Assembly (NCBI GenBank): GCA_903960915.1
Contig: CAJCCO010000043.1
Coordinates: 6,574-70,573, forward strand
Length of the DNA stretch: 64,000 bases
Reading direction: 5' to 3'
Source of the DNA: an uncultured beta proteobacterium
GTDB taxonomy: Bacteria; Pseudomonadota; Gammaproteobacteria; Burkholderiales; Burkholderiaceae_C
The first letter of the stretch is position 1. Each line of letters begins with the position of its first letter. Made by a program: the position numbers and the translations under genes. This document shows positions 32,549 to 59,642 of the stretch, piece by piece. Under the pieces are notes generated by a model that did no database searches, was not told the origin of the DNA, and was given only the letters and a program-made list of their open reading frames with translations.

Positions 32549-33379
32549 ATGATGATCAAGACCGATCGCATGGCGCCCCTTGCCGCCTACCTGTTGGTAG
32601 GGGTGGGTAGCTTGCTCATGCTGGCGCCCTTTTATTTCATGTTCGTGTTTGCCACCCATTCACGCACTGAAATTTTCAATTTGCCGCCGCCCTTGTTTTT
32701 TGGCAATGAATTTTTCAACAACCTGGCCCTCCTGACCAGCAAAATTCCATTCTGGCGCAGCCTGGGCTGGAGCTTGTATGTCGCCCTGGCCTCCACCGGG
32801 CTGACGCTGTTGTTTTGCTCCATGGGCGGGTATGCCTTTGCCCTGTTTGAGTTTCGCTTCAAGAAGCCTCTCTTCATGCTGGTGATGGGCACCATGTTGA
32901 TCCCCTCATTTCTCGGCATGATTCCGACGTTCATGATCATGGACGCTTTTGGCTGGATCGATCAACCCCGCGCGCTCTACATTCCGGGCGCGGCCAGTGC
33001 GTTTGGCATTTTCATGATGCGCCAGTTTGTGGCCTCCGCCATACCGCGTGATCTGATTGAAGCCGCACGCATGGACGGCTGCAGTGAGCTGGGCATTTAC
33101 TGGCGCATTGTGCTGCCCTTGCTGAGCCCGGCCATGGGAACTTTAGGCCTGATTACTTTCATTGCCTCCTGGAACAACTTCATTGGGCCTTTGATCGTGA
33201 TGCGCTCGCCCGAGATGTACACCTTGCCCTTGGCTTTGCGCAGCATGCAAAGCCCGGTCAATACCGAATGGGGTGCCGTGATGGCCGGTGCGGCTATTGC
33301 CACCTTGCCACTGCTGGTGTTGTTTGCCATTTCCTCTCGCCGTCTTATTGATGGACTGACCGCGGGTGCCGTGAAATGA
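32549..33379 (+). CDS. Carbohydrate ABC transporter permease (MalG/UgpE-like)
   Basis: Polytopic protein with EAA loop IEAARMDGCSELGIYWRIVLPLLSP. The ATG at 32549 is preceded by AGGACAGG; the track start at 32525 is a GTG. Confidence 0.85.
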   Translation: MMIKTDRMAPLAAYLLVGVGSLLMLAPFYFMFVFATHSRTEIFNLPPPLFFGNEFFNNLALLTSKIPFWRSLGWSLYVALASTGLTLLFCSMGGYAFALFEFRFKKPLFMLVMGTMLIPSFLGMIPTFMIMDAFGWIDQPRALYIPGAASAFGIFMMRQFVASAIPRDLIEAARMDGCSELGIYWRIVLPLLSPAMGTLGLITFIASWNNFIGPLIVMRSPEMYTLPLALRSMQSPVNTEWGAVMAGAAIATLPLLVLFAISSRRLIDGLTAGAVK

Positions 33380-40643: not shown

Positions 40644-40657
40644 TGAAAGCGCTTTCA
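40644..40657. promoter_or_regulatory. LacI-type operator palindrome upstream of the porin-GH17 operon
   Basis: Perfect TGAAAGCGCTTTCA, 18 nt upstream of the porin start codon (40626, minus strand). Confidence 0.7.
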
Positions 40658-40797: not shown

Positions 40798-40811
40798 TGA
40801 AAGCGCTTTCA
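40798..40811. promoter_or_regulatory. LacI-type operator palindrome upstream of the GH81-GH16 operon
   Basis: Perfect TGAAAGCGCTTTCA, 47 nt upstream of the GH81 ATG (40858). Confidence 0.7.
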
Positions 40812-43146: not shown

Positions 43147-45330
43147 ATGATGTCATTTTTTCTTTTCCCGCTGGGGTCCAAGTGGCGTCTGGCTCACGCC
43201 TTTGCACTCGTTTGCCTTGCACTGTCGGCATGCGGTGGGGGTGAAAAGGTCGCAGACAGCGTAGCGCCCACATTGGTCGTATCCGACGCATCGCCTGGGG
43301 CAAGTGCAACAGGGGCATGGACCGTGTTGTTTGCTTTTAGCGAAAGTGTGGGAACGAGCTTTAGCGCGGAGGATATCGCCCTCACCGGGAGTATCGCGGT
43401 AGGGGCGTTGGAAAAAATTGATGAAAAAAACTACAGCCTGCGGCTAACACCAGACGCCAACAGCAGTGGTGTACTGACCCTGAGCGTGGCCGCCAATAAG
43501 TTCAGCGACGTGGCGCTCAACAACAACGCACAAGCCAGTAGTTACAGTAAAAATTACAACACCCAAACCGTCACTTCGGACTGGGTAATGGACTGGAGTG
43601 AAGAGTTCAATGGAACGCAGCTCAACACCAACGTCTGGAGTTTTGATACCGGTTCAGGTGGCTGGGGAAACAATGAATCACAGTACTACCAAGCCAGCAA
43701 CGCCACCGTGAAAGATGGATTTCTAACGATCACGGCCAAGCAAGAGCGGGTTGGAGACGCCGATTACACCTCGACGCGTATCCAGTCCTCGCGCAAAAAA
43801 AGTTTTACCTATGGGCGCTTTGAAATGCGCGCCAAGTTACCCGCCACCCAAGGTATGTGGCCTGCGTTTTGGTTGCTGGGCGATGCCTGTAACTCGTTTA
43901 ATTTGTATGGTGGCACGGTCAACTGGCCCGACTGTGGCGAAATTGACATCATGGAAATGATTGGCGGCCTAACCGACCGAACCGGCGACTACACATCCTA
44001 CGGCACCTTGCATTACCGCAATGCCTTGAACTTCAACCCGGCCCCGTCTTTCTCGAACAGAAATGCCAAGCCACTGTCTGAAGATTTTCATGTCTACACC
44101 ATGGACTGGACGCCCCAAGGCTTTACCTGGTATGTCGATGGCATCGCCTTCGGTACCAAATTGATCAGCGCTGACATGGCGGCTTTTCACAAACCCTATT
44201 TCATGCTGCTGAATCTGGCCGTAGGGGGTAATTGGGGTGGTTGGGTTGACAGCTCCACGCGCTTCCCTCAGACCTTCGTGATTGACTATGTACGCCACTA
44301 CACCCGCCCTTGGCCGGCCAAGAACAGCACGGCTGGTTTACCTTCAAGCTGGCACCTGGCCAGCGACCCCCACCTGAACGTGGCGGGCGGCACGCAAACG
44401 GGTGCGCAGCCGGTGGTCTCGCTGGGTGAGACAGCCATTTCTTGGTACAGCCCATTTCTCACCGGCAGCTACGATGCGGGGGCCTGGACCGCCAGCATCT
44501 GGACCCTGGCCAGTTCAGGCAGTTCACCTGTTCGCGCCCGCATTTACAGGCGATCGGCCACGACCGGGTTCGAGTCGATGCTTGGAGAAACCACCGTAGA
44601 CCCAGCCACCACGGGCAGCGGCAACCATGTCACTCGCTTCACGTTCAAGGCCATGCCAGCTATGGTGCTGAGCAACGAAAGTATTCGCCTTGAATTAAGC
44701 AAGCTCAGCGGCCCCATCTTGAAACTGGTTGTCAACGGCAATGATTTCGACTCCAACCTGACCATGCCCTGGAGTACGGCGGGCACTTACGGCGCTTACC
44801 CCTCGGCTGCATCGTTGGCATTTCCCGCCGCCACTGCATCAACAAATGCCGGCAACACCAGCACCGCCGCTGCAACCTTGGGCGTCTACGCTGATACCGC
44901 CCTGCTGTCGAGTTGGCCTGGTTTGAAAGCTCCAGACGCCTACGCCAGAGGACAGGTTCAAGACACCCTGCTCCTGCCTTTTGAAGGCAGCCACAGCCTC
45001 AGTGTTAACTTGAACTTTGATGGCAGTGGCTGGCAGTTTGTGGGTGAGCCCCTGGACATTACCCCCTACGCCAAGCTGCGTTTCATGATCAAGACCAGCT
45101 CAGCCCCTCAGTACGTGCGCGTGCGCCTGGCCGGCACGGGGCAGGTGGGCAGCGTGCCCTTGTCGGCTTACCTGGCTTCTACGTCTGAATGGCAAGAGAT
45201 TGTGATCCCCCTGTCGGCCTTTGGCACAGCTGCGCTGGGCGCTGTTTCGGTGCCTTTCAGTCTTGAATCAGTGGGCGGTGCTGCCAGCTTTAGCGCCCAG
45301 GTGGACAAGGTTTACTACTCGAAAAATTGA
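43147..45330 (+). CDS. GH16 laminarinase-type beta-1,3(4)-glucanase lipoprotein (Ig-like stalk + GH16 + extra domain + CBM-like C-terminus)
   Basis: 727 aa with lipobox LALSAC|GGG. An N-terminal Ig-like module carries FSESVGTSFSAEDIALTG. GH16 motifs are GWGNNESQYY, GMWPAFWLLG and catalytic GEIDIMEM. Confidence 0.85.
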   Translation: MMSFFLFPLGSKWRLAHAFALVCLALSACGGGEKVADSVAPTLVVSDASPGASATGAWTVLFAFSESVGTSFSAEDIALTGSIAVGALEKIDEKNYSLRLTPDANSSGVLTLSVAANKFSDVALNNNAQASSYSKNYNTQTVTSDWVMDWSEEFNGTQLNTNVWSFDTGSGGWGNNESQYYQASNATVKDGFLTITAKQERVGDADYTSTRIQSSRKKSFTYGRFEMRAKLPATQGMWPAFWLLGDACNSFNLYGGTVNWPDCGEIDIMEMIGGLTDRTGDYTSYGTLHYRNALNFNPAPSFSNRNAKPLSEDFHVYTMDWTPQGFTWYVDGIAFGTKLISADMAAFHKPYFMLLNLAVGGNWGGWVDSSTRFPQTFVIDYVRHYTRPWPAKNSTAGLPSSWHLASDPHLNVAGGTQTGAQPVVSLGETAISWYSPFLTGSYDAGAWTASIWTLASSGSSPVRARIYRRSATTGFESMLGETTVDPATTGSGNHVTRFTFKAMPAMVLSNESIRLELSKLSGPILKLVVNGNDFDSNLTMPWSTAGTYGAYPSAASLAFPAATASTNAGNTSTAAATLGVYADTALLSSWPGLKAPDAYARGQVQDTLLLPFEGSHSLSVNLNFDGSGWQFVGEPLDITPYAKLRFMIKTSSAPQYVRVRLAGTGQVGSVPLSAYLASTSEWQEIVIPLSAFGTAALGAVSVPFSLESVGGAASFSAQVDKVYYSKN

Positions 45331-45448: not shown

Positions 45449-45476
45449 TGAAAGCGCTTTCATGAATGCGCTTTCA
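45449..45476. promoter_or_regulatory. Tandem LacI-type operators upstream of the glycan-binding lipoprotein gene
   Basis: Perfect TGAAAGCGCTTTCA (45449-45462) is directly followed by the imperfect copy TGAATGCGCTTTCA (45463-45476). They lie 48 nt upstream of the ATG at 45524. Confidence 0.7.
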
Positions 45477-45523: not shown

Positions 45524-47380
45524 ATGAAACAACTTACAAAACAATTTGCCCTGTCGGCTAGCGCCCTGGCTGCGGCCCTACTGATTACCGCCTGCGGCGG
45601 TGGTGCCTCAACAGATGACACAACGGCACCAACAGTGACCATTACCGATAGCGTGGCTGATACTACGGCAACTGGCAATGTGACGTTTACGTTCACCTTC
45701 AGCGAAAGTGTGGGTGCCAGTTTTACAGTGGATGACATCACGGTTACCGGCGGTGTTAAATCTACTTTCACCATGGCTGACACTGGTTTGAGTGCCACCT
45801 TGTTGGTGGTGCCAACGGCCAATACCACGGGTACGATTTCAGTCGCGGTAGCGGCAGACAAATTCAAGGACGCAGCAAACGTCGTCAATACTCTGTCAGC
45901 CACAGCAACCCAGGCTTACAACACGGTGACGGAAGGTACCGCGCTCAACTTTGAGACGGGCGGAAAAGGCGCTGCATTTACCTGGAAAACTTTTGAGAAT
46001 GATACGAACCCTGCCGTTGAAATTGTGGCGAACCCCAATACAACAGGTATCAATTCATCAACCAAGGTGGCTAAATTCACGACATTGGCAACGGGGGCTC
46101 CCTACGCTGGGTTTGAAAGCAAGCATGGTACAGATTTGGGGACTGTGAAACTGAGTGCTGCTAACGCCCTTGTGAAGATCATGGTCTACAAAACGGTTAT
46201 CAGTGATGTGGGCATTAAATTTGCCAACGCTACAGATGGTTCTACTGGTGAGATCAAAGTGCCCAATACAAAAGTTAATGAATGGGAAGAATTAACTTTT
46301 GACTTCTCTGCTGTGATTGGTGGTGTGAATGATGCAATTGATCAAATCATATTCATGCCGGATTTCAAAGCGCGAAGTGCTGACAATATTATCTACATTG
46401 ACAACATAACCTTCTCAGCCAAGCCAGTAGCTGCGACATTTCCTGTCTCTTTTGATGAGGCAACTCCGCCAAAATTTGCGGGGTTTAATGGAGCCGAGGA
46501 CACATCTATTAAACCTGGGCCAACCGGTGGTACCGGTGATGCCTTGAAGATCATTCGCAACACTGGTGATACTTGGGCTGGCGCCAAGTTGACGGAAATG
46601 AGCGTGGGTATCACGACAACAAACAACACGGTATCCGCAAAGGTTTACTCACCCACAGCGGGGATTCCTTTCGAACTTAAATTAGAGGGCAGCAAAAGTG
46701 ATACTGGAGAAATCGCTGCAAATGAGGCGGTTGTTGTTGGTTGGCAAACCCTCACCTGGACGGTGCCTAGCGGCAAGATTGGGCCAGTTCGGGATGTTGT
46801 TGTCTTTTTACCCAATAATCGGACGGTGGGTGCCGGCGAAATTTATTACATCGACGATATCAAGATAGTCGCTGGCGCGGTTGCTCCCGTTGTGGTCTCC
46901 ACATTGCCGGTTACCTTTGATGGTGTCGGTGTCACATATAAATTTACTGGCTTTGGTGGTACATCCGCGGAACTGGCGGCGGATCCAGCGGGTGGCGCCA
47001 ATAAGGTGGCTAAGGCCATTAAATCGGCAACTGCAGAATCTTGGGCGGGCGTCACTTTCTCCACAGGTGCGAGCGATTCAATAGCCACGGTTCCATTCAC
47101 TTCCACCGCTAAGTCGATGACCTTGCGTGTGTATTCGCCTGCTTCTGGTATCCCAGTTCTTTTGAAGCTTGAGGATGCGTCGAATAAAGATAAGAATACA
47201 GAGGTCCAGGTAAACACGACAGCGGCTAATGCGTGGCAAACCCTGACCTTTACTTTTGCCGGTGCAGACGTGACTACAACCTACAACAAGGCCTCGGTGT
47301 TCTATAACTTTGGGACGACTGGTGCAACGGGTGGCGGTGGCACCTTCTACTTTGACGATCTGACCTTTGTGGCGCCCTAA
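45524..47380 (+). CDS. Lipoprotein with Ig-like stalk and three CBM-like repeats (candidate surface glycan-binding protein)
   Basis: 618 aa with lipobox LLITAC|GGG and an Ig-like module FSESVGASFTVDDITVTGG, as in the GH16 protein. Three ~150-aa modules follow, each ending in a Y(I/Y/F)DD/N(I/L)(T/K)F/I motif (IYIDNITFS, IYYIDDIKIV, FYFDDLTFV). Confidence 0.65.
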   Translation: MKQLTKQFALSASALAAALLITACGGGASTDDTTAPTVTITDSVADTTATGNVTFTFTFSESVGASFTVDDITVTGGVKSTFTMADTGLSATLLVVPTANTTGTISVAVAADKFKDAANVVNTLSATATQAYNTVTEGTALNFETGGKGAAFTWKTFENDTNPAVEIVANPNTTGINSSTKVAKFTTLATGAPYAGFESKHGTDLGTVKLSAANALVKIMVYKTVISDVGIKFANATDGSTGEIKVPNTKVNEWEELTFDFSAVIGGVNDAIDQIIFMPDFKARSADNIIYIDNITFSAKPVAATFPVSFDEATPPKFAGFNGAEDTSIKPGPTGGTGDALKIIRNTGDTWAGAKLTEMSVGITTTNNTVSAKVYSPTAGIPFELKLEGSKSDTGEIAANEAVVVGWQTLTWTVPSGKIGPVRDVVVFLPNNRTVGAGEIYYIDDIKIVAGAVAPVVVSTLPVTFDGVGVTYKFTGFGGTSAELAADPAGGANKVAKAIKSATAESWAGVTFSTGASDSIATVPFTSTAKSMTLRVYSPASGIPVLLKLEDASNKDKNTEVQVNTTAANAWQTLTFTFAGADVTTTYNKASVFYNFGTTGATGGGGTFYFDDLTFVAP

Positions 47381-47465: not shown

Positions 47466-49139
47466 ATGAAACAAAAAGTTAGATTGATACCAGCAGCTGC
47501 GTTGCTCATGCTCGCCGCCTGCGGCGGCGGTAACAGCGGGTCATCGGATACCCCTGCCGTAACGCCGACCAGTGGCCTCGCGGTGGACGGTTACCTGAAA
47601 CAGGCCAACGTCACCTGCGATGCCAACGGCAACGGCTTGGTGGACAGCGGAGAAGTGAAGGTCACCACAGATGCTGTGGGCGCCTTCAGCTTTCCAAGTG
47701 GGTGTAGCTACGGGATCATCGTCACAGGCGGTATCAACGTCGACACGAACCAGGCCTTTACCGGTGTCTTGAAAGCCCCGGCTGGCGCTAAGGTGGCAAC
47801 CCCGTTGACCACCTTGCTGGTGGGCGGCATGACCCCGGCTGAGCTCAAGACCTCTTTGGGGCTTGATGCCAACATGGATTTGTTGACGCTTGACCCAGCC
47901 GCTAAGAGTGGCGGCACCTACACCAATTTGGCGTTGTTTCAGAAGACGTTGGCTGTTCAGCAGCTGATGCAAAAAACTGCCGAATCTTTGGGTGGGTTGG
48001 CTTCAGCAACGGGTAGCGATGCGCTGCAGCCCATTTACACCGAAGTGGCTAAAGCCTTTGCGACCGCCATGAAGAGTTCTTCAAGCGGAAACCTTGCCAG
48101 CAGCACGGCTTTGAATCAAACCCTGGTGGAGTCGCTGGTGAGTGCTGCAACCACCCGTGTGGCCGCCTCTGATACGGTTAGCCCCAGTGTGAGAACCGCC
48201 TTGGTTTCGGTTAATTCCGCCACGTTTGCGGCGGTGATTGGGTCCTCTCTCAAGGTGCAGGCAGACGCTATTTTGCAGTCCAGCGACAGCACCTTGGTGT
48301 CGGTCACCACCACGCAGCAAGGCGATGACAAGGTTTCTGCGTTTGCCCTAGAGAAAAAATCATCGCTGAATTTGTTGCCTACTTCAACCGAAATTGCGGT
48401 GTTGAAAACTACCCTTTCAGAAACGGTGGCGGCTCCAAGCACGCCGGTTGTGGCTAACAACTACATCAAGCTGGTGGACAACACCATCAGCCTGACGTCG
48501 GGTACTGCCAGCACCGCTTACACCGCTGCAGCCTTTCAATCGGCTGCAGGTATATCGGTTGCTTGGCCGCTGTCAACGTCTTCGATGCTCGATCTGTCTT
48601 TGGCCGAGGTGGGCACTTTCACAATCGAAGAGGGTAAGAAACTGAGTGCTGCTTTCAAGGTGACGGATGAGTCGGGAAGTTCTGCTGAAGTGCGCGGCTT
48701 CATTGACAACATCTCAATCGCTAAAACCAGCAGTGGCTTGGTCTTGCGGGTGGCCAACACGGCAACTGCCAAGGTCTATGGCGTCTCCAGCGATGGTAAG
48801 AAAAAGGCAGTCGTCAACTTCTCTAGCAGCGTGGCTGGCATTACCAATACGCTCAAAGCGACAGGCAGCAACAGCATTATTTTGGGTGAAGTGGTGAATT
48901 ACGCCATTACCAGCCTGAGCAATGACTTCACGGGCATCAGCGAGTTGAGTGGTAAATACAAGGTGACCTTGGTCATCAGTGATTTGCCCTTGCGCAAGGC
49001 GGATGGCACTAAATTCGAGCTCATGGGAGTTGATGTGCCCACTGGCCTGAGCAGTGTGGGCGCTACCACCAGCTCGAGCGCCGTGGTGGGCTATGGATTG
49101 ACCGGCTACATTACATTGACAAATACCAATGAACGATGA
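47466..49139 (+). CDS. Lipoprotein of unknown function
   Basis: 557 aa with lipobox LMLAAC|GGGNSGSS. The N-terminal VDGYLKQANVTCDANGNGLVDSGE is a Ca-binding-like DxNxNGxxD loop. An Ala/Ser/Thr/Leu-rich middle and a beta-rich C-terminus follow. I recognise no family. Confidence 0.6.
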   Translation: MKQKVRLIPAAALLMLAACGGGNSGSSDTPAVTPTSGLAVDGYLKQANVTCDANGNGLVDSGEVKVTTDAVGAFSFPSGCSYGIIVTGGINVDTNQAFTGVLKAPAGAKVATPLTTLLVGGMTPAELKTSLGLDANMDLLTLDPAAKSGGTYTNLALFQKTLAVQQLMQKTAESLGGLASATGSDALQPIYTEVAKAFATAMKSSSSGNLASSTALNQTLVESLVSAATTRVAASDTVSPSVRTALVSVNSATFAAVIGSSLKVQADAILQSSDSTLVSVTTTQQGDDKVSAFALEKKSSLNLLPTSTEIAVLKTTLSETVAAPSTPVVANNYIKLVDNTISLTSGTASTAYTAAAFQSAAGISVAWPLSTSSMLDLSLAEVGTFTIEEGKKLSAAFKVTDESGSSAEVRGFIDNISIAKTSSGLVLRVANTATAKVYGVSSDGKKKAVVNFSSSVAGITNTLKATGSNSIILGEVVNYAITSLSNDFTGISELSGKYKVTLVISDLPLRKADGTKFELMGVDVPTGLSSVGATTSSSAVVGYGLTGYITLTNTNER

Positions 49140-50278
49140 CCGCTCCTGAACCTTTCAAATCAGCCGCTGCGCAGCGAAAGTTGCGGGGGGGCTGGCTTGT
49201 AGGGGGGGGGCTGTGGATGGTGGCGGCATGGTGCGGTCAAGCAGTGGCGGCGCCTCTCGATGGGCTGCTGACGGCTGCACCTGATACGGGTGCCTCTACG
49301 TTTTCCCTGGCCTTGGCCACGGACCACATGAATAGCAGTCTTGATATTTTCAAGGTGCGCAGCAACGACGCCAGCCTTGAGTCGGCCAACACGGGTGATT
49401 ACTCGGGCCAGCACCTCACGGCCATTTGGCAGGCGGCGCCTGATGTCTGGTTGTCGGGCAGTTGGTGGCGGCGGGCTGTCATCAGCGCGGCCGACACCTA
49501 CCGTTACAACAGTTGGCAAGTGTCTGGTCAATACCGTTTTCTCCAAGCCAGGGACGCCTGGCCTGCCATGGCGGTTCGTCTGTCTTCCTGGGGCAATGAG
49601 GCCAGCGCAACGGAGACCACCTCGCCTGTGCGCGTGCCGGGTGCGATTTTGAACACGGTGAAGATCACTCAACCGGCGGACCAGCAGGTGCAGCTTGATC
49701 TGGTGGGTAGCTGGCAGCTGACGCCCGCCTCCGAGCTGAGTTTGTTTGCCAGTGGCGGTGTCTCACGCTTGTCGTATGGCGGCTTGTCGGCCACCACGAC
49801 ACAGAACGGCTGCAACTACCAACTTCAGTTCACGGGCAATTCTATTTACGGCAGTCTTGCCCCGTCCTGTAGCGGCTCTTCAGGGGTCATAGAACAGTTC
49901 TTTGACAGCAGTGGCGACTACGGCGTCGATGTAGCCAAAGAGATTGCCTGGCGCGGCAAGTTCATTCAACTTGGGGTGAATGGCAACTGGCGCAACGGCC
50001 CCTGGAAGCTGGCGGCTGGGTACCACGTGAATGTTATTTCGCGCTCGGATGTGGACCAAATTCTCAGAGCCCGCAGCAAAACGCCTTACACCAGCAACAA
50101 GGCGTTGGTGCTTCAGGCGAATTACCGTTTCAACAACACCTTCAGCACCTTTGCCCAAGCCCAGTACAACACCAATTTGTTTTTCAATGACCTGCCAGTC
50201 ACTTACAACAGCAGTACGTCAGAGCGTTTTTCGCGAAGTTACTCGCTCTACACCGTGGGTGTACGGGCCGACTTTTAA
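49136..50278 (+). CDS. Putative outer-membrane beta-barrel protein of unknown family
   Basis: 380 aa. Its ATGA start/stop overlap with the preceding lipoprotein gene indicates coupling. The signal-like N-terminus is ...WLVGGGLWMVAAWCGQAVA|AP. It has aromatic-rich alternating segments and a terminal YTVGVRADF (C-terminal Phe beta-signal). Confidence 0.55.
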   Translation: MTAPEPFKSAAAQRKLRGGWLVGGGLWMVAAWCGQAVAAPLDGLLTAAPDTGASTFSLALATDHMNSSLDIFKVRSNDASLESANTGDYSGQHLTAIWQAAPDVWLSGSWWRRAVISAADTYRYNSWQVSGQYRFLQARDAWPAMAVRLSSWGNEASATETTSPVRVPGAILNTVKITQPADQQVQLDLVGSWQLTPASELSLFASGGVSRLSYGGLSATTTQNGCNYQLQFTGNSIYGSLAPSCSGSSGVIEQFFDSSGDYGVDVAKEIAWRGKFIQLGVNGNWRNGPWKLAAGYHVNVISRSDVDQILRARSKTPYTSNKALVLQANYRFNNTFSTFAQAQYNTNLFFNDLPVTYNSSTSERFSRSYSLYTVGVRADF

Positions 50279-50344
50279 AGCCTCAGTCCGTGGCGGGCTG
50301 CGTGTATTATCAAAAGCGTCATGATCCTTGCAAAGCTTTATTCA

Positions 50345-50788
50345 ATGCCTACCTCGCGTAATTCCTTCCACCGCAGAATCCAACGCGGCTTCACCCTGAT
50401 CGAGCTCATGGTGGTGCTGCTCATCATTGGTGTGCTGGCGGCCTTGATCGTGCCCAATGTGCTGGACCGGGCAGATGATGCGCGCGGTACAGCGGCCAAG
50501 ACCGATGTCAGCAACCTGATGCAGGCGCTCAAGCTCTACAAGCTGGACAACCAGCGCTACCCCAGCACCGCGCAAGGGTTGCAGGCCTTGCGCGTTAAAC
50601 CTACGGCAGACCCGGTACCGGGCAACTGGAAGCCCTACCTGGACCAGTTGCCCAACGACCCTTGGGGTCGACCCTATATTTACCTTAATCCGGGCGTCAA
50701 GGGCGAGGTCGATGTGATGTCTTTTGGCGCCGACGGCCAGTCTGGCGGCGAGGGTAAAAATGCCGATGTTGGCAGCTGGCAGCCCTGA
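50345..50788 (+). CDS. gspG: Type II secretion system major pseudopilin GspG
   Basis: Prepilin leader ...RRIQRG|FTLIELMVVLLIIGVLAALIVP. DPWGRPYIYLNPG...DVMSFGADGQSGGEGKNADV is canonical GspG. Confidence 0.9.
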   Translation: MPTSRNSFHRRIQRGFTLIELMVVLLIIGVLAALIVPNVLDRADDARGTAAKTDVSNLMQALKLYKLDNQRYPSTAQGLQALRVKPTADPVPGNWKPYLDQLPNDPWGRPYIYLNPGVKGEVDVMSFGADGQSGGEGKNADVGSWQP

Positions 50789-51209
50789 GCGCGCCTCAGG
50801 TTTCACCCTGCTGGAGTTGCTGGTGGTGTTGGCCATAGTGGCCATTGCCTCCGCTGGCGTCAGCCTGTCACTGCGTGACACCAGCCAGACCGCCTTGGCG
50901 GCAGATGCGCAACGCCTGGCTGCCGCGCTTGATGCGGCCCGCGCGCGCTCACAAGTCAGCGGCGTGCCGGTGCGTTTTGTGGCCGACGACAAACAAACCC
51001 GCTTTGAAGGACTGGCCCAGGCCGATGCGCCTGCCCTGGCCTGGGGCCCGAACACCCGCGTGGTGGGCCCGGTAAATCTGCTGCTGGGCCCCGAGCCGGT
51101 GATTGACCCGCAGCAACTGCAACTTCAATCCATCAACCCACCGGGCCAGCGACTGACCCTGGCCACCGATGGCGTGCGTCCGTTTGCCGTGCAAACCGCG
51201 GCGCCGTGA
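50760..51209 (+). CDS. gspH: Type II secretion system minor pseudopilin GspH
   Basis: MPMLAAGSPERASG|FTLLELLVVLAIVAIASAG prepilin N-terminus. Position is after gspG. The ATG at 50760 is preceded by GAGGG. Confidence 0.8.
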   Translation: MPMLAAGSPERASGFTLLELLVVLAIVAIASAGVSLSLRDTSQTALAADAQRLAAALDAARARSQVSGVPVRFVADDKQTRFEGLAQADAPALAWGPNTRVVGPVNLLLGPEPVIDPQQLQLQSINPPGQRLTLATDGVRPFAVQTAAP

Positions 51210-51219
51210 ATTTGTCCTT

Positions 51220-51585
51220 ATGAAAACGGCCATGCCTGCAAAGGGCTTCACGCTGATTGAGGTGCTGGTGGCGCTGGGCATTGTGGCCATTGCGCTGATG
51301 GCCGGTTTGCAGGCTACCGGCGCCTTAAGCAACCACGCGCAGCGCCAGGTGGACGTGTTGCTGGCGCAAACCTGCGCAGAAAATGAATTGATCAAGTTGC
51401 GCCTGGCCAAACAAATGCCCGGCGTGGGCGACAGCGTGGTGGACTGCCCGCAAGCGGGGCAAACGTTCACGGTGAAGCTGGTGGTGCGGCCTACGCCCAA
51501 CCCGAGTTTCATGCGCGTGGAGGCGCAGGTCAGTACGCCGCAATACCCGGTACTGCAAGTGATGACGGTGTTGGGGCGTTACTGA
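51220..51585 (+). CDS. gspI: Type II secretion system minor pseudopilin GspI
   Basis: MKTAMPAKG|FTLIEVLVALGIVAIAL. About 121 aa, in the conserved position. Confidence 0.8.
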   Translation: MKTAMPAKGFTLIEVLVALGIVAIALMAGLQATGALSNHAQRQVDVLLAQTCAENELIKLRLAKQMPGVGDSVVDCPQAGQTFTVKLVVRPTPNPSFMRVEAQVSTPQYPVLQVMTVLGRY

Positions 51586-52367
51586 TGCGCGCCCGTTCTT
51601 GGCCCTTAGTGGCCCCACAACGCGGCTTCACCCTGATTGAGTTGCTGGTGGCGATCAGCCTGATGGCGGTGATGTCGGTGTTGAGCTGGCGCGGGCTTGA
51701 TGGCATGACCCGCTCGCAGAGCCGCTTGCAACAGCATGGCAACGAGGTGCAGGCCCTGCAGGCCGCGTTGGCGCAATGGGGCGTTGACCTGGATGCGATG
51801 GCGATTCAACCCCAAACGCCTAGCCTGGACTGGGATGGCCGGGCCCTGCGTATCGTGCGCCAGGGTGTGCTGCCAGGCGAGGGGCTGCGCGTGGTGGCCT
51901 GGACGCGGCGCAATGTGGGCTTGACGAGTTCAAATGACCCAACTGGCCAGTGGCTGCGCTGGCAGTCGCCCCCGCTAACCACGCGCGTGGCCCTGTTGCA
52001 GGCCTGGCAACAGGCGGCCGACTGGGGGCAATACGTCAGTGCTGCGGACGCCCAGCGCGAGGTGCGCCTGGTGCCGCTGTCGCAGTGGCAAATTTTTTAT
52101 TACCGGCAAGACGCCTGGAGCAACCCTTTGTCCAGCGCGGGTACCCCTGCCACCACACCTACACCCGAACCCGCTCCTGCACCTGCACCTGCACCCGCAC
52201 CTTCCCCCCCACAAGGACAAGGGCAGGGCGCCCAAGCCCCGGTTCAGGGCAAGCCCGAAGCACTGCCTGACGGTATTCGGCTGGTGCTGCAATTGGCCCC
52301 GGGACAGGCGGTGAGCGGCCAGCTCACGCGCGACTGGATTCGCCCCGGCGTGGGAGGTGGCAAATGA
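51585..52367 (+). CDS. gspJ: Type II secretion system minor pseudopilin GspJ (with Pro/Ala/Gln-rich insertion)
   Basis: ...PQRG|FTLIELLVAISLMAVMSVLSWRGLDGM. TGATG overlap with gspI. A low-complexity TPATTPTPEPAPAPAPAPAPSPPQGQGQGAQAPVQGKPEA segment lies near the C-terminus. Confidence 0.8.
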   Translation: MRARSWPLVAPQRGFTLIELLVAISLMAVMSVLSWRGLDGMTRSQSRLQQHGNEVQALQAALAQWGVDLDAMAIQPQTPSLDWDGRALRIVRQGVLPGEGLRVVAWTRRNVGLTSSNDPTGQWLRWQSPPLTTRVALLQAWQQAADWGQYVSAADAQREVRLVPLSQWQIFYYRQDAWSNPLSSAGTPATTPTPEPAPAPAPAPAPSPPQGQGQGAQAPVQGKPEALPDGIRLVLQLAPGQAVSGQLTRDWIRPGVGGGK

Positions 52368-53347
52368 CACGGCTGCGTAGGCATGCCAGGCCACAAAGTG
52401 GTGCGGCCATTTTGAGCGCCATGCTGACGGTTGTGCTGGTGGCCTCTTTGGCCGCCAGCATGCTGTGGCAGCAATGGCGCAACGTCGAGGTAGAAGCGGC
52501 ACAACGCACCCGAACGCAGTCTGCCTGGGTGCTGTTTGGCGCACTGGACTGGGCGCGGTTAATTTTGCGTGAAGACGCCCGCAAAGGCGGCGCCGACCAC
52601 CTGGGCGAACCCTGGGCGGTGCCGCTGGCGCAAACCCGGTTGTCCACCTTTTTGTCGAACGACCGCAGCGATGCCCTGGCGGCGCAGGCCGAGCAAGCCT
52701 CGTTTGTATCGGGGCAGGTGCAAGACCTGCAAGCGCGCCTCAATGTCACCAACCTGTTGCAGGACGGCAAGATTCATTCGCCCAGCCAACTGGCTTTTGC
52801 CCGCCTCTTTGCGCAACTGAACCTGCCTGAATCGGAGTTGAAGGGCTTGACCGAGCAACTGCTGGCCGCCCACGGCGCCACGCTGGTAGCCAAGCCCAAT
52901 ATGGCGGCCCCTTTGTGGCCGCAAGAGGTGGCGCAACTCGCCTGGTTGGGCTTGTCCAACCGCAGCCTGCGGCGCTTGCAGCCCTTCATCACGCTGTTGC
53001 CCGAGCGCACGCCGGTTAACCTCAACACCGCCTCGGCCGAGGTGCTGTATGCCTGCGTGCCAGGCATTGAAATGGCGGACGCCCAGCGCCTGGTGCAGGC
53101 GCGCAGCCAGTCGCCCTTAACCACGTTGGAGGACGCCCGCAAAGCGCTGGGGCTCAATAAATCGCCTTTCAATGACTTGGCGCACAGCGTGGCTACGCGT
53201 TACTTTGAAGTCAGCGGCCTGTTGCAAATAGACCAGAGCACGGTCCATGAGTTGTCGCTGTTGCGCCGCGACGGGGCGGAGGTCAAAGTTTTGTCCCGTC
53301 AACGTGGTGCCAGCGGGCTGCCAGCCCAGGCAGTCGCCCTACAATGA
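52364..53347 (+). CDS. gspK: Type II secretion system minor pseudopilin GspK
   Basis: 327 aa. N-terminal GAAILSAMLTVVLVASLAASMLW. The size, the HhH-like region LNTASAEVLYACVPGIEMADAQRLVQAR and the position fit. Confidence 0.8.
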   Translation: MTRLRRHARPQSGAAILSAMLTVVLVASLAASMLWQQWRNVEVEAAQRTRTQSAWVLFGALDWARLILREDARKGGADHLGEPWAVPLAQTRLSTFLSNDRSDALAAQAEQASFVSGQVQDLQARLNVTNLLQDGKIHSPSQLAFARLFAQLNLPESELKGLTEQLLAAHGATLVAKPNMAAPLWPQEVAQLAWLGLSNRSLRRLQPFITLLPERTPVNLNTASAEVLYACVPGIEMADAQRLVQARSQSPLTTLEDARKALGLNKSPFNDLAHSVATRYFEVSGLLQIDQSTVHELSLLRRDGAEVKVLSRQRGASGLPAQAVALQ

Positions 53348-53366
53348 TTCGAGAGACCTGCCGCGC

Positions 53367-54608
53367 ATGACCACCCTGATCGTTACCCCGCCAACCGACC
53401 CCACTGACCCGCACGCGTTGTGGGACTACCTGCTCTCGTCGGATGGACGAGTGGTGGGTGAACACGCCAGTGTCAGCCTGCTTCAACTGCCTAAGCGCAA
53501 CGCTTCCGGCGACCAGGTGGTGGCGCTGGTGCCGGCAGCGCGTTTGTCCTGGCATGCGGTGCAGTTGCCCGCCGGTTCTTTGAGTCAGCGCCTGTTTCAG
53601 GACCGCGCAGCACCGCGTTTGCGCGCCATTCTGGAAGGGCTGCTGGAAGACCATTTGCTGGACGACCCCGCCCAGCTTCATTTCGCGCTGGAGCCGCAAG
53701 CGCGCAACGATGCGCCGGTGTGGGTGGCCGTCTGTGACCGCACCTGGCTGCGCGCGGCTTTGCAGGCGTTGGCGCAGTCGGGCCACGTGGTGAGCCGTGT
53801 CGTGCCCGAGTTCACCCCGGGTGAGCCTGCGTTGTTGCAAGTGGTGACGGCGCCCCAGGAGAGCGCTGCCGGCACGGCGCAGCTGGTGGCTGCCAATGCA
53901 CAAGGTGTATCTGTCTGGCCCTTGTCCAGCGCCTCACTCGCTGCGTTGGACTGGCCACCAGAGACGCCGGTGCTGTCCGAGCCTGCGTGGGCGCAGCAGG
54001 CAGAAGCGCTTTTGGAAAAACCTGTGACCCTGCAAGCCAGCACCGAGCGGCGTGTGTTGGCGCTGCAATCAGCCTGGGACTTGGCGCAGTTTGACTTGCT
54101 CAGCTCGCCGCAGCGCCGCATCTGGGCGCGCTGGCGCGATGCCGCTGCCACGCTGCTGCAGGCGCCGCGCTGGCGACCCGCCCGGTTGGCTTTGATGACC
54201 GTGGTGGTGGTCAACTTGCTGGGGCTGAATGCCTGGGCCTGGCGCGAGCAGGCACAACTGCAAGAGCAAACAGCGGCCATTCGCCATGTGTTGACCAGCA
54301 GCTTCCCCCAGGTCGTGGTGGTGGTCGATGCGCCTGTGCAAATGGCGCGCGAAGTGGCTGCCTTGCAGCAAGCCAGTGGCGCGCTGTCGCCGCGCGATCT
54401 GGAGAGTCTGCTCAGTGCCGTGGGTGCGGCAAGCCCCGCCCCGGCACAGCCCAAAACATTGGACTATGCCGCGGGTGCCTTGCGTCTGCAAGGTCTGACG
54501 CTCAATGCTGAGCAACTCAGGCTGCTCAGTGGCCGGCTCCAGCCTCTGGGTTACAGCGCCAATGCCGTGGGCGATTCGCTTAGCGTGCAACCTAAGGGCA
54601 CGCCATGA
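53367..54608 (+). CDS. gspL: Type II secretion system protein GspL
   Basis: About 413 aa from the ATG at 53367 (MTTLIVTPP). A cytoplasmic domain, a single TM (LALMTVVVVNLLGLNAWAW) and a periplasmic domain are present. Position is between gspK and gspM. Confidence 0.75.
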   Translation: MTTLIVTPPTDPTDPHALWDYLLSSDGRVVGEHASVSLLQLPKRNASGDQVVALVPAARLSWHAVQLPAGSLSQRLFQDRAAPRLRAILEGLLEDHLLDDPAQLHFALEPQARNDAPVWVAVCDRTWLRAALQALAQSGHVVSRVVPEFTPGEPALLQVVTAPQESAAGTAQLVAANAQGVSVWPLSSASLAALDWPPETPVLSEPAWAQQAEALLEKPVTLQASTERRVLALQSAWDLAQFDLLSSPQRRIWARWRDAAATLLQAPRWRPARLALMTVVVVNLLGLNAWAWREQAQLQEQTAAIRHVLTSSFPQVVVVVDAPVQMAREVAALQQASGALSPRDLESLLSAVGAASPAPAQPKTLDYAAGALRLQGLTLNAEQLRLLSGRLQPLGYSANAVGDSLSVQPKGTP

Positions 54609-55108
54609 ACCCTACGAGTTTTATGAGTTTTAGGCCGCTGTGGCAAGCCCGTTGGCGCGCCTTGTCGGGCCGTGAGCAAACCCTGCTGTTGTCTGCGCTG
54701 GCTTTGGTGCTGGGCGCTGCGCTCTGGTGGCTGGCCCTGGCGCCCGCTTTGACGGTGTTGCGCACGGTGGACAGCCAGCGCACCGCGCTCGATGCGCAGT
54801 GGCAGCAAATGCAAAGCCTGCAGGCGCAAGCCAGCAGCTTGCAGGCCCAGGCCCGCCTGGCGCCTGAAGAAGAGCGCCGTTTGCTGGAGGCTTCACTCAA
54901 ACCACTGGGGGCAGGCAGCGTGCTCAAGGTGGACGGTGAACGCGCCACCATCAACCTGCGGGCGGTACCGGCCCAGGCGCTGGCGCTGTGGCTCACGCAA
55001 GTGCGCCAAAACGTGCGCCGCACCCCTGTTGAGGCGCATCTGGTGCGCAACGCCGCAGGCAGTTGGGACGGTACCGTGGTGCTGTCGCTGGCTCCGGGCG
55101 TGCGCTGA
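54605..55108 (+). CDS. gspM: Type II secretion system protein GspM
   Basis: 167 aa. WQARWRALSGREQTLLLSALALVLGAALWWLAL has the single N-terminal TM typical of GspM. ATGA overlap with gspL. Confidence 0.75.
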   Translation: MNPTSFMSFRPLWQARWRALSGREQTLLLSALALVLGAALWWLALAPALTVLRTVDSQRTALDAQWQQMQSLQAQASSLQAQARLAPEEERRLLEASLKPLGAGSVLKVDGERATINLRAVPAQALALWLTQVRQNVRRTPVEAHLVRNAAGSWDGTVVLSLAPGVR

Positions 55109-55117
55109 CCGCGCTAT

Positions 55118-55160
55118 ACAAAGATAGACAAAGATAGACAAAGATAAACGAAGATAAACC
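55118..55160. repeat. 10-bp tandem repeat (about 4.3 copies) filling the gspM-gspN spacer
   Basis: ACAAAGATAG ACAAAGATAG ACAAAGATAA ACGAAGATAA ACC, directly abutting the gspN ATG at 55161. Confidence 0.9.
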
Positions 55161-55979
55161 ATGGCCCGCCCCTCCTTTTTTCAGTCGACTGCCCGCACCC
55201 GCAGCACGCTGCCGTCAGCGCCGTGGGCCTGGGCGGTGGGCGGCCTGCTGCTGGGCTGTTTGCTGATGTTGCTGTGGCAAGCCCCGGCCCGCTGGCTGGC
55301 CAGTGGGGTGCACACGGTCACCCAAGGGCGTGTGGTCTTGCAGGACGCACGCGGCACAGTCTGGCAGGGCTCGGCCCGGCTGCAGCTGAACGGTGGAGCC
55401 GGTAGCTTGGACGCCGCCGCCCTGCCGGGTCGTCTGAGCTGGCAGCTGCGCCGTGACGGCACCGCACTGCAAGCCCACTTATTGGCCGACTGTTGCATGC
55501 AGCAGGCCCTGCAGGTGCAGGGGTCGCTGGGTTGGGGTGGCTTGCAATTGGCCGTGTCAGACAGCCAGTCGCAGTGGCCGGCCGCGTTGCTCATTGGCTT
55601 GGGTGCGCCCTGGAACACGGTGCTGCCCGAGGGGCAGTTGAGCCTGTCCACACAAGGTCTGGCAGTACAGCTGCAGCAGGGCCGCAGCAGTGTGCGCGGC
55701 AGTGTTCGGCTGGAAGCGCAAGCCCTGTCGTCGCGCCTGTCCACCCTCAAGCCCATGGGCAGTTACCGCTTCACGCTGACCGGCGGCGCGCTGCCGAGTT
55801 GCGCCCTGGAAACCTTGGACGGCAGCTTGCGCTTGTCGGGCAAGGGCCAGTGGGTGGCCGGACGCTTGCGTTTTGACGGCGAGGCCAGCGCCACCCCCGA
55901 GCGGCAAGAGGCACTGTCGAATCTGTTGAACATCATTGGTCGACGCGATGGCGCACGGGCCATCATCAAAGTAGGTTGA
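55161..55979 (+). CDS. gspN: Type II secretion system protein GspN
   Basis: 272 aa with an N-terminal TM WAWAVGGLLLGCLLMLLW, then VVLQDARGTVWQGSARL... The pattern and position are typical of GspN. Confidence 0.7.
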   Translation: MARPSFFQSTARTRSTLPSAPWAWAVGGLLLGCLLMLLWQAPARWLASGVHTVTQGRVVLQDARGTVWQGSARLQLNGGAGSLDAAALPGRLSWQLRRDGTALQAHLLADCCMQQALQVQGSLGWGGLQLAVSDSQSQWPAALLIGLGAPWNTVLPEGQLSLSTQGLAVQLQQGRSSVRGSVRLEAQALSSRLSTLKPMGSYRFTLTGGALPSCALETLDGSLRLSGKGQWVAGRLRFDGEASATPERQEALSNLLNIIGRRDGARAIIKVG

Positions 55980-55985
55980 ACGTAT

Positions 55986-58106
55986 ATGACAACTCCAAAC
56001 TTTTACCGACCCGCCTGGGCGCTACGGACTGCCACCCAGCAGTTGCTGTTGGCCTCTGCGCTGGCCTTGCTCGCTTGGCCTGTGGGTGCCCAGACCACGC
56101 CAGTGTCCAAGCCCGGCGAACCCGCCACGCTGAATTTCAGCAACGCGGATATTGAGTCGGTGGCGCGCACCATGGCGGTTATCACTGGGTACAACCTGGT
56201 GGTCGACCCGCGCGTCAAGGGCACCCTCACGCTGGTGACTGAAAAACCGGTGAGCCGTGAGACAGCCATGAACCAGTTTTTGGCGGCCCTGCGCTTGCAG
56301 GGGTTCACCATGGTCGAGTCAGCCGGTTTGTACAAGGTGATTCCAGAGGCCGACGCCAAACTGCAAAGTGGCGCCCTTAATCTGGGCGACGGTGTCCCAA
56401 GCAAGGTGGTGGGCAACCAGATCACCACGCAAATTTTCAAACTCAACTTTGAGCAGGCCGCCAACCTGGTACCTGTGCTGCGCCCGCTCATCAGCCCCAA
56501 CAACACCATCAATGCCAACGCGGGCAATAACTCGCTGGTGATTACCGACTACGCAGACAACCTGCGTCGTTTGGCCCGCATCATTGCGGCCATGGATGTG
56601 TCCAACGCCAGCGAAGTTGAGGTGCTGCCGCTGAAGCACGCCATTGCGGTAGACCTGGCGCCCTTGGTGCTGCGTCTGGTGGAGTCGGGCAGCGCCCCTG
56701 CAGCAGGTGCGGGCCAAGCCGACAGCACTTTCAAAACCTTGCTGATTGCCGAGCCGCGCTCCAATTCGCTGTTGCTGCGTGCGGCCAATGCGGCCCGGGT
56801 GGCGTTGGTGAAGTCACTGGTGGAGAAGCTGGACCAACCCGAAGCACAGGGCAGCACCGACCCGGCGGGCAACATTCATGTGGTGTACCTGAAGAATGCC
56901 GATGCCACCAAATTGGCGGCCACCTTGCGTGCCGCTATGAGTGGCGAAGTGCGCACGCCAACCAGCTCGCAGTCGGGCGCACCCGCTGGCGCCTCGACCG
57001 CTGCAGCGGCTTCCAGCACCGGCGGCCAAGTGCAAGCCGATGCGGCCACCAACTCACTCATCATCACCGCGCCCGACCCGCAGTACCGCCAGTTGCGCGC
57101 CGTCATTGACAAGCTCGATGCCCGACGCGCCCAGGTGTTTGTGGAGAGCCTGATTGCCGAGGTCAGCGTCGACAAGGCGGCCGAATTTGGCGTGCAATGG
57201 CAGGGCGCCTTGGGTAAAAGCGGCGACTCTCTGATTGGCCTGTTGGGCTCCAACTTTGGCAGCGGTGGCAGCAACATCATCAACCTGGCCACTGGCGCAG
57301 CCAGCAGCACGGTGGCGCCGTCGCGCGGCCTCAACGTGGGCGCGCTCAAGCAGACCAATGGCGTGTATGTGCTGGGATTTCTGGCACGTTTTCTGGAAGA
57401 GTCGGGCAGCGGCAATGTGCTGTCCACGCCCAACTTGCTGACGCTGGACAATGAAGAGGCCAAGATTGTTATTGGGCAGAACGTGCCCTTTGTCACGGGT
57501 CAATTCACCAACACGGGGGCGGGCAGTGGCAGCTCGGTTAATCCGTTTCAGACGATTGAGCGCAAGGATGTGGGGCTCACGCTCAAAGTGAAGCCGCAAA
57601 TCAGCGAGAACGGTACCGTCAAGCTGGCCATTTACCAGGAGGTCTCTAGCGTGCAGGCCTCCACGCTGAACGCCAGCAATGGCCCCACCACCAACAAGCG
57701 AACCATTGAGTCCAACGTATTGGTGGACGACGGCGCCATTGTGGTGCTGGGCGGTTTGTTGCAAGACGAGTACTCGGGCAGCCAGGAGAAAGTGCCCGGT
57801 CTGGGTGATGTGTCCTTTTTTGGCAACCTGTTCAAAAGCGAAACCCGCAGCCGCAAGAAAACCAACCTGATGGTGTTTTTGCGACCCGTGGTGGTGCGCG
57901 ACGCTGCGGCCAGCGACCGCCTGTCGATGGACCGCTACGACCAGATGCGCTCGGGCCTGAAAGAGGCCCAGCCGCTGCCCAACCAGGTACTGCCCATCAA
58001 TGAAGCCGCCGTTTTGCCGCCGCTCGCCCCGGCCTCAATAGCTGCACCTAAAGCAGCGCCTGAAGCGCCTAAGGCACCGCTGGCGCCTCTCGCGAACAAG
58101 CCCTGA
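55986..58106 (+). CDS. gspD: Type II secretion system secretin GspD
   Basis: 706 aa with a signal peptide and N0-N3 domains ([31 protein letters not shown]). The secretin core is [28 protein letters not shown]...[17 protein letters not shown]. Confidence 0.9.
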
Positions 58107-58137
58107 GTTTTTCTGGCCACCCCCACACCTCACCACC

Positions 58138-59589: not shown

Positions 59590-59642
59590 GCGCAGGCATG
59601 CTGCCGCCTCGCTTGCCTTGACCGACTGATAAAGCCCCAGCC

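Follow-up and report, generated by a model that had tools for sequence, protein, structure and literature searches.

Several outer-membrane systems described to date bear comparison with the gene pair presented in this study: SusC/SusD and SusE/F of Bacteroidota, the Slam proteins of the type 11 secretion system (T11SS), the capsule protein Wzi, the MtrB-MtrC and pullulanase systems, and the alginate export proteins AlgK and AlgE. Much has yet to be learned about how Proteobacteria put lipoproteins and glycan-binding proteins on the cell surface, and likewise about the capture of laminarin and chrysolaminarin, soluble polysaccharides that constitute a major algal carbon pool, by non-Bacteroidota without Sus-like TonB-dependent machinery. 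Here, we describe two adjacent genes, named LIPO and BARREL, located in a 64,000-nucleotide stretch of DNA from an uncultured beta proteobacterium of the Burkholderiales, a freshwater member of the Comamonadaceae resembling Rhodoferax (contig CAJCCO010000043.1, positions 6,574 to 70,573), which is referred to as the window. LIPO and BARREL make up a genuine two-gene module of the outer membrane, well conserved and hitherto undescribed. We tentatively favor the view that its products are obligate partners in an outer-membrane complex, by which polysaccharide, beta-glucan in this case, is captured or tethered at the cell surface. The elements of the module are the following (aa, amino acids):

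47466-49139, forward strand: LIPO gene, encoding a 557-aa lipoprotein of an unrecognized family
49136-50278, forward strand: BARREL gene, encoding a 380-aa outer-membrane beta-barrel of an unrecognized family
49136-49139, forward strand: ATGA overlap of the LIPO stop and the BARREL start, read directly in the sequence
47619-47657, forward strand: EF-hand-type loop DANGNGLVDSGEV of LIPO (aa 52-64), which fits the PROSITE EF-hand loop pattern
50284-50300, forward strand: weak terminator-like hairpin in the gap between BARREL and the downstream gene gspG; the number of such sites is not above shuffled expectation

SusC-like transporters are 22-strand barrels with a plug domain and a TonB box. The locus in the window resembles Sus systems in that a barrel gene lies beside the gene of a lipoprotein of about 550 aa, and in that surface lipoproteins with carbohydrate-binding modules (CBMs) and lipoprotein glycanases are brought together in one substrate-regulated locus, presumably for capture of the polymer. 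However, mature BARREL has only about 340 aa and about 16 strands, with no match to the Pfam families Plug and TonB_dep_Rec. Similarly, LIPO differs from SusD, which has a TPR-containing helical fold, since no SusD/RagB match was found in Pfam and, despite a confident model, no SusD structure appeared among its Foldseek matches in the PDB. In addition, the present host is a betaproteobacterium, and LIPO-BARREL also occurs outside glycan loci.

Slam proteins carry an N-terminal periplasmic TPR-like domain ahead of the barrel. The outer-membrane protein of the T11SS is defined by a DUF560 barrel domain, and its surface lipoproteins, such as TbpB, fHbp and NilC, are built from conserved parts, for targeting or as a scaffold, and from functional modules that vary (PMC12282271). 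The likeness to LIPO-BARREL is that a barrel gene adjoins a lipoprotein gene and that LIPO also consists of a conserved scaffold with variable modules. In contrast to Slam, BARREL has an N-terminal extension of only about 17 residues and no periplasmic domain, and DUF560 was matched neither by BARREL (E<=0.1) nor by 43 distant members of its family (E<=0.01). LIPO gave no Pfam match to T11SS cargo proteins, and TbpB, fHbp and HpuA were not among the Foldseek matches of its model, which was searched only as a whole of three domains.

Wzi is an outer-membrane lectin consisting of a single 18-stranded barrel, which tethers group 1 capsule and is encoded just 5' of wza-wzb-wzc. In one of the loci collected (L051) the LIPO-BARREL pair lies directly 5' of wza-wzc, the place of wzi in group 1 capsule loci, and the role proposed here, holding polysaccharide at the surface, is also similar. 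The differences are that Wzi has one component and the present system two, and that no match to the Wzi family of Pfam (Caps_assemb_Wzi) and no Wzi structure in the top Foldseek matches was obtained.

MtrB, a barrel of about 650-700 aa (PF11854), holds the surface lipoprotein MtrC, and the pullulanase PulA is a surface lipoprotein dependent on a type II secretion system (T2SS). Lipoprotein enzymes or effectors encoded beside a T2SS, and in the Mtr case a partnership of barrel and lipoprotein, are features shared with the window. BARREL differs from MtrB in having 380 aa, and PF11854 was matched by 2 of the 43 distant BARREL members at noise level (E 0.002-0.005) over about 50 residues. The T2SS linkage of LIPO-BARREL is lineage-specific. 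Finally, AlgK, a TPR/Sel1-repeat lipoprotein, and AlgE, a barrel of the Alginate_exp family, serve alginate export and are likewise a lipoprotein and a barrel tied to polysaccharide loci, but LIPO and BARREL have no TPR/Sel1 or Alginate_exp signatures and the locus in the window is catabolic.

With respect to the carbohydrate porins OprB, LamB/ScrY, KdgM and CymA, BARREL gave no Pfam match and fold TM scores of at most 0.46, and OprB was matched at noise level (E 0.0085) by 1 of the 43 distant members. Taken together, none of the family-specific features that were looked for (DUF560, plug/TonB, SusD, sugar-porin families, MtrB size or family, pilotin size and Wzi family) is present, and the two proteins fall only into generic classes, BARREL being a protein of the outer membrane (OMP), of the type handled by the beta-barrel assembly machinery (BAM) and LIPO a lipoprotein.

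The LIPO-BARREL gene pair and its products

The first-pass annotation, made from the bare sequence, had described two open reading frames (ORFs) joined by an ATGA overlap and had read them as a translationally coupled lipoprotein and beta-barrel pair. Both ORFs and the overlap were recovered exactly, and the lipobox of the first product and the predicted barrel of the second agree with that description. Its comparison of the layout with Slam, MtrB-MtrC and LptD-LptE is one of analogy, as the searches showed no DUF560, no barrel of MtrB size and no LptD/E signature. No Shine-Dalgarno-like sequence was found ahead of the BARREL start, which together with the overlap fits translational coupling. 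In the gene calls of JGI, BARREL begins at Met28 and has 353 aa; the start at 49136 appears preferable because a protein starting at Met28 would have no charged n-region for its signal peptide. The distance from the upstream gene, which encodes a lipoprotein with CBM-like modules, to LIPO is 85 nucleotides (nt), as had been noted. The distance from BARREL to gspG had been given as 66 nt, which is correct for the ATG at 50345 and becomes 42 nt for the ATG at 50321. The glucan transcription unit may end at the hairpin in this gap.

Conservation of the pair was analyzed in 44 loci from one-genome-per-species contigs, nearly all of them metagenome-assembled genomes (MAGs) of freshwater Burkholderiales, with one isolate (Rubrivivax albus ICH-3); one locus, from a Rhodoferax sp. 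(L012), shares 97% identity with the window. In 42 of the 44 the gene directly 5' of the barrel gene, and on its strand, is a LIPO homologue, the other two having no usable upstream sequence, and in 30 of 37 evaluable related loci a start codon falls between -4 and +13 nt from the LIPO stop. Altogether, 66 adjacent LIPO-BARREL pairs are present among the loci collected, an adjacency far beyond chance.

The pairing is also old. BARREL representatives split into several deep groups, and pairs occur in three deeply separated subfamilies, with identities as low as about 20%. The largest of the other subfamilies (30-36% barrel identity, 32 metagenome loci) has a LIPO-family ORF directly 5' wherever upstream sequence exists, with the sole exceptions of L058, L059 and L071. 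In these three an IS3-type insertion with two transposase ORFs (1183-2496 in L058) truncates the 5' end of the barrel gene and has removed the lipoprotein gene. In the most distant branch sampled (about 20% identity), a lipoprotein of 495-525 aa is encoded ahead of the barrel, and its full-length sequence can be aligned to the LIPO profile (hhalign probability 98.7%, E 3e-16, 453 columns). A single-protein metagenome scan with a third barrel group gave no match. Locus L001 (8278-14222) contains two pairs in tandem, the second with a 651-aa LIPO and a 360-aa barrel about 46% identical to BARREL of the window, indicating that LIPO-BARREL was duplicated as a unit. The first-pass annotation had made its proposal depend on the two genes being neighbors elsewhere as well, and they are, in 66 pairs, the only exceptions being loci disrupted by insertion sequences. 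LIPO and BARREL HMM scores, compared across loci as a sign of co-divergence, gave a rho of 0.25 (p 0.07), an uninformative value confounded by mixed profiles and by the inserts described below. One 437-aa metagenomic fragment (P0362) begins with a patatin-like N-terminus, continues with a segment like the helical motif of LIPO (TDP...LLKQTVVVQQ) and passes directly into the N-terminal portion of a barrel. This is a chimera produced by assembly or else a naturally occurring fusion of lipoprotein and barrel.

LIPO and BARREL are two previously undescribed protein families. Neither had been assigned to a family at first reading, and neither could be assigned here: apart from noise, Pfam and NCBIfam gave no match at E<=0.1, profile searches with the alignment of either family found no sequence relatives in the PDB, and the 43 distant BARREL members matched no Pfam family, giving noise-level matches to generic OMPs only. 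Both proteins carry the label 'hypothetical protein' in every public source examined, and the literature searched has no description of the pair or of the present beta-glucan locus of Burkholderiales. A profile search of 1.84 billion representative proteins showed the BARREL family to comprise 192 clusters at 50% identity, nearly all with lengths of 350-390 aa.

LIPO starts with a signal peptide and lipobox (LAAC-GGG; aa 1-19, Cys19). Cys19, Gly20 and Gly21 are invariant across 43 homologues, a lipobox-like motif is present in 53/53 full-length homologues, and LIPO has the defining feature of bacterial lipoproteins, a signal peptide ending in a lipobox with an invariant Cys, as in Lgt/LspA substrates. 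Its AlphaFold2 model is confident (pLDDT 88.7, pTM 0.82) and comprises an N-terminal beta domain (aa 35-104, delimited as 35-112 in the domain map), a helical domain (aa 113-322) and a C-terminal beta domain (aa 333-553), in agreement with the helical middle and beta-rich C-terminal part recognized earlier. DSSP assigns about 14 strands to the C-terminal domain, which closes with the conserved strand G-x-G-L-x-G-Y-I-T-L, and the linker that precedes it (aa 323-332) is poorly conserved. A Foldseek search with the whole three-domain model gave no PDB fold match at E<0.01. The Ca-binding-like N-terminal module of the first-pass annotation stands only for the protein of the window, in which DANGNGLVDSGEV fits the EF-hand pattern and is suggestive of Ca binding. 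The strict pattern occurs in 9 of 43 homologues and in 0/4 distant ones, and the loop is deleted in the distant LIPO branch. It was rejected as a hallmark of the family, given that only those 9 of 43 members fit.

The length of LIPO varies considerably, many homologues having 720-900 aa. In one of them (P0161), residues 1-301 match LIPO 1-301 and residues 675-899 match LIPO 332-553, and between them lie two inserted modules with 31% identity (E 6e-32) to modules in the CBM lipoprotein encoded upstream of LIPO in the window. Inserts in some homologues are recognized by Pfam as CBM35_2 or CBM4_9-like. The insertion point of these CBMs is the linker between the helical and C-terminal domains. LIPO is thus a conserved scaffold able to carry glycan-binding passengers at one fixed linker. 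The idea that the C-terminal domain of LIPO itself could be a diverged copy of the neighboring CBM modules was rejected, as no similarity was found.

BARREL has a plausible signal peptide (aa 1-38, ...GQAVA-AP), followed by the conserved N-terminal extension AAPLDxLL, and about 17 residues separate the signal peptide from the first strand in the model. AlphaFold2, run on a 45-sequence alignment, gives a beta-barrel (pLDDT 79, pTM 0.76; 290 of 380 residues with pLDDT >= 70) with about 16 membrane strands, short periplasmic turns and long external loops by DSSP parity. The protein terminates in the beta-signal YTVGVRADF (50249-50275), and its identification as an OMP with a signal peptide and a terminal beta-signal at first reading was thus well placed. 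Signal peptide, beta-signal, turn and loop lengths and face hydrophobicity are all those of a generic BAM substrate. Foldseek against the PDB returned 290 OMP matches at E <= 0.001, all of them generic (OmpG, TodX/CymD, EstA, OmpF-type, and AlgE among them) and none with a TM above 0.46.

The conservation pattern of BARREL deserves attention. Cys226 and Cys245 are invariant and lie on the extracellular side, and the long external loops (0.71) are conserved at least as highly as the strands (0.69), with the loops at aa 156-169, 242-271 and 346-368 reaching 0.74-0.80. Exposed OMP loops conserved to the same degree as strands are unusual. This suggests that the loops may either be hidden inside the lumen or lie beneath a conserved partner. 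In addition, polar lumen-facing residues are better conserved than lipid-facing ones (0.73 vs 0.65).

The beta-glucan locus and its LacI-type operators

The window holds a complete beta-glucan catabolic locus, of which LIPO and BARREL form the 3' end. Its genes, including those of several glycoside hydrolase (GH) families, and its operators are the following:

29062-30117, forward strand: LacI-family regulator gene, with LacI and Peripla_BP domains
30211-33379: sugar ABC transporter operon
33449 (start): GH1 gene
35900-37255, reverse strand: GH30 gene
37325-39280, reverse strand: GH17 lipoprotein gene
39277-40626, reverse strand: gene of a second unrecognized OMP candidate, 449 aa, with a signal peptide and the C-terminus ...NWFTVGVVYSF
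40858 (start): GH81 gene
43147-45330, forward strand: GH16 lipoprotein gene
45524-47380, forward strand: gene of the Big_12 lipoprotein (the CBM lipoprotein), with lipobox ITAC-GGG and three CBM-like modules
30212-30225: operator ahead of the ABC transporter operon
40644-40657 and 40798-40811: two perfect operator palindromes in the divergent promoter region between the OMP candidate and GH81
45449-45462 and 45463-45476: tandem operators, TGAAAGCGCTTTCA and a copy with one mismatch, 48-75 nt 5' of the CBM-lipoprotein gene

The operator TGAAAGCGCTTTCA is a perfect 14-bp palindrome of the LacI/CcpA type. The window has five operator sites, where 0.23 would be expected, and every one of them is intergenic and within the glucan locus. 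Moreover, 22 related loci belonging to several genera of Burkholderiales have kept the operator positions ahead of the ABC transporter, between the OMP candidate and GH81, and ahead of the CBM-lipoprotein gene. The CBM-lipoprotein, LIPO and BARREL genes are therefore a transcription unit and a member of the beta-glucan regulon. As to regulation itself, which we deduce from the sequence, the tandem operators at 45449-45476 are likely to be the control point of this three-gene unit, and the LacI-family gene at 29062-30117 is presumed to encode the regulator of the regulon that includes LIPO-BARREL. There is no operator between BARREL and gspG.

The organization of the locus is largely maintained in relatives. 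GH81, the second OMP candidate and GH17 are found 5' of the pair in 16 of the 20 loci with enough flank, and in two loci (L019 and L037) the three-gene unit stands alone among housekeeping genes. The second OMP candidate (39277-40626), which had not been mentioned in the first-pass annotation, gave no match in Pfam, NCBIfam or the PDB. Its gene is divergent from GH81 in every related locus with GH81, and its product is probably an oligosaccharide porin of another unrecognized family.

The CBM lipoprotein consists of three tandem modules of about 150 aa, which end in ...YYIDNITF, YYIDDIKI and FYFDDLTF. Homologues of these modules in relatives are recognized as CBM35_2, CBM4_9 or CBM11-like. They are likely to represent a new or divergent type of beta-glucan-binding CBM. 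Glycan capture had been one of several roles suggested at first for the pair, and in this lineage it is supported by the shared LacI-type operator and by the CBM modules inserted in many LIPO homologues.

Proposed function and alternatives

According to the capture and tethering proposal, one translationally coupled message would give rise to an obligate two-protein outer-membrane unit, in which BARREL would be the membrane partner that holds, and possibly exposes, LIPO at the cell surface. LIPO would serve as a rigid three-domain scaffold, carrying CBMs in many relatives and placed here beside a separate triple-CBM lipoprotein. The pair and the CBM lipoprotein would together hold glucan of the laminarin type at the cell surface, available to the lipoprotein glucanases, and the resulting products would enter the cell through the second OMP (39277-40626) and the ABC importer. 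On a longer time scale, LIPO-BARREL would be an autonomous module of old origin, repeatedly drawn into loci for surface polysaccharide.

The last point can be compared with the neighborhoods of the pair in other lineages. No GH81, GH16, GH17, CBM or T2SS genes are found near the pair in the larger other subfamily, in which it borders genes for capsule or exopolysaccharide in several independent contexts (L051, L053, the L058 group and L070). Surface polysaccharide is a recurrent, non-universal context of LIPO-BARREL, as illustrated by the following loci:

L051, 5402-16790: wza-wzc-GT4-ugd immediately 3' of the pair
L053, 1911-9979: KpsC-like, KdsB and KdsA genes flanking the pair
L058 group (L058, 2515-4860): WbaP-like neighbor
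L070, 5986-14074: acetyltransferase and GT1 neighbors
L057: pair beside phaA/phaB
L080: pair beside metE/mdh/recQ
L047 and L049: pair beside msrPQ/mdh/nrdR/ndk

Some of these data, and some others, weigh against a role in glycan capture. In several lineages the pair is located among housekeeping genes without glycan genes nearby. In L065 (539-9092), which belongs to the same subfamily as the window, it lies directly 3' of genes for an MtrB/PioB porin and an MtrC/OmcA-like multiheme lipoprotein, again with no glycan genes nearby. It follows from the housekeeping and MtrB/MtrC-like contexts that the module is autonomous and that its ancestral function is not glucan-specific. The LIPO of the window has no CBM module of its own, although it adjoins the triple-CBM lipoprotein, and the minimal modules of L019, L020 and L037 have no operator. 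The topology and strand count of BARREL derive solely from DSSP parity. We infer the physical complex, the surface exposure of LIPO, the binding of glucan and the division of labor with the second OMP, and by analogy with AlgK it is possible that LIPO faces the periplasm instead.

A broader reading, possible but in our opinion doubtful, is that LIPO-BARREL constitutes a self-contained proteobacterial surface-display system. In this case the barrel of about 16 strands would translocate or anchor its cognate lipoprotein, which bears passengers at its linker (CBMs here), and the system would have been recruited repeatedly to surface-polysaccharide loci. If true, this would be a new route of lipoprotein export or anchoring, unrelated in sequence to Slam/T11SS, to BAM-threaded RcsF and to T2SS-dependent lipoproteins. 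A barrel acting as translocon or anchor would thus add a new entry to the short list of surface-lipoprotein pathways.

It is rather unlikely that BARREL is a glucan-oligosaccharide pore and LIPO its extracellular lid or delivery cap, an arrangement that would make the pair a TonB-independent channel and a functional analogue of SusC-SusD without plug or TonB box. The absence of a TonB-dependent transporter among the annotated genes of the locus and the membership of the pair in the glucan regulon are consistent with such a channel. So are the porin-like size of BARREL, the higher conservation of its polar lumen-facing residues, and its conserved loops, which could make a constriction. However, the larger OMP candidate at 39277-40626, in the same regulon and always beside GH81, is a simpler candidate for the porin. 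In addition, the pair is also found in capsule, exopolysaccharide and housekeeping contexts with no importer nearby, and the likeness of BARREL to sugar porins is limited to generic barrel matches.

We consider it improbable that BARREL is a dedicated translocon similar to Slam/T11SS but built on an unrelated barrel, exporting LIPO and perhaps also the GH16, GH17 and CBM lipoproteins. In such export, the conserved C-terminal domain or strand of LIPO would act as the targeting element. A cargo gene that adjoins an OMP gene, and a C-terminal domain that is conserved while an inserted effector varies, are reminiscent of T11SS (PMC12282271). Export by BARREL would also suit the C-GGG start shared by four lipoproteins of the locus and the one locus where the pair lies beside genes of MtrB/MtrC-type surface lipoproteins. 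Nevertheless, BARREL has neither DUF560 nor a periplasmic domain, and Pfam and the Foldseek search with the whole LIPO model gave no match of its C-terminal domain to the eight-stranded barrels of the TbpB type. Furthermore, LIPO is the sole nearby lipoprotein in most contexts, and the genome has a T2SS available for lipoprotein export.

The repeated insertion of CBMs into LIPO itself, the operator conserved 5' of the three-gene unit in about 20 loci and the recurrence of polysaccharide genes as neighbors in another subfamily all argue against a glycan-unrelated envelope pair. Such a pair, with a structural function or one in lipid homeostasis (MlaA-OmpC or Pal-like), would only happen to lie at the edge of the glucan operon in the window. 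This explanation would account for the housekeeping neighbors in several lineages, and it draws further support from the absence of a CBM in LIPO of the window and of PDB fold matches for the scaffold domains. We regard it as a poor prospect.

A function in polysaccharide export, with BARREL as an exopolysaccharide pore and LIPO as its helper in the periplasm or the outer membrane (comparable to AlgE-AlgK), is very unlikely. It would be in line with the position of the pair immediately 5' of wza-wzc-GT4-ugd in L051, with the Kps-type, WbaP-type and glycosyltransferase neighbors elsewhere, and with the presence of AlgE among the generic fold matches of BARREL. The locus in the window is, however, purely catabolic (LacI, ABC importer, GH1, GH30, GH17, GH81 and GH16), and no glycosyltransferase is present among its annotated genes. 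The Alginate_exp, TPR and Sel1 signatures are also missing, and CBM insertion suits binding rather than export.

LIPO-BARREL offers practical handles: two families for which confident structures are predicted and no relatives are known, a pairing that does not vary across deep lineages, a LacI operator for induction, and natural variants with CBM passengers. Together they provide a testable model for a new outer-membrane device for glycan capture or surface display in abundant freshwater Burkholderiales.

The adjoining T2SS cluster and additional features of the locus

Downstream of BARREL, and outside the module, the window contains one further feature of relevance:

50321-60869, forward strand: T2SS cluster gspG-H-I-J-K-L-M-N-D-E-F, given as context

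The first-pass annotation had placed the pair at the junction between glycanase genes and the T2SS and had considered a T2SS-accessory module. The former description has to be revised, as the pair is the 3' end of the glucan operon and its adjacency to the T2SS is lineage-specific. Indeed, gspG is found 3' of the barrel in 11 of the 37 related loci with downstream sequence and in 0 sampled loci of other subfamilies, and unrelated housekeeping genes occupy this position in Rubrivivax albus and in L001.

T2SS pilotins (PulS/OutS, AspS) are small lipoproteins of about 120-140 aa that co-occur with their secretin. A role of LIPO-BARREL as a T2SS accessory, for example a pilotin-like or docking factor for the adjacent gsp system, is extremely unlikely. 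The pair does lie on the strand of gspG, 42-66 nt upstream, and 11-12 related loci, as well as L063, are arranged likewise. This reading is nonetheless largely refuted by the distribution, since gspG is not 3' of the pair in the Rubrivivax albus isolate, in many other loci and in the two other subfamilies sampled, and it was rejected on this ground and on that of the missing operator before gspG; the hairpin 3' of BARREL, the absence of a PulS/OutS-type Pfam match and the 557 aa of LIPO, compared with the small known pilotins, also speak against it. The T2SS may be an export route for the lipoproteins of the locus. Within the cluster no gspC-type gene was recognized, and the GspH and GspJ candidates were recognized solely by the prepilin N-methylation motif.

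Two additional features of the locus are worth mentioning. The lipoboxes of the GH17, GH16, CBM (Big_12) and LIPO proteins all run into three glycines (C-GGG), which could be a flexible tether or a common sorting signal. The GH30 enzyme (35900-37255, reverse strand), with the N-terminus MIQPYLTVCATDQRL..., apparently has no signal peptide, which suggests cytoplasmic processing of imported beta-1,6-branched oligosaccharides alongside GH1.

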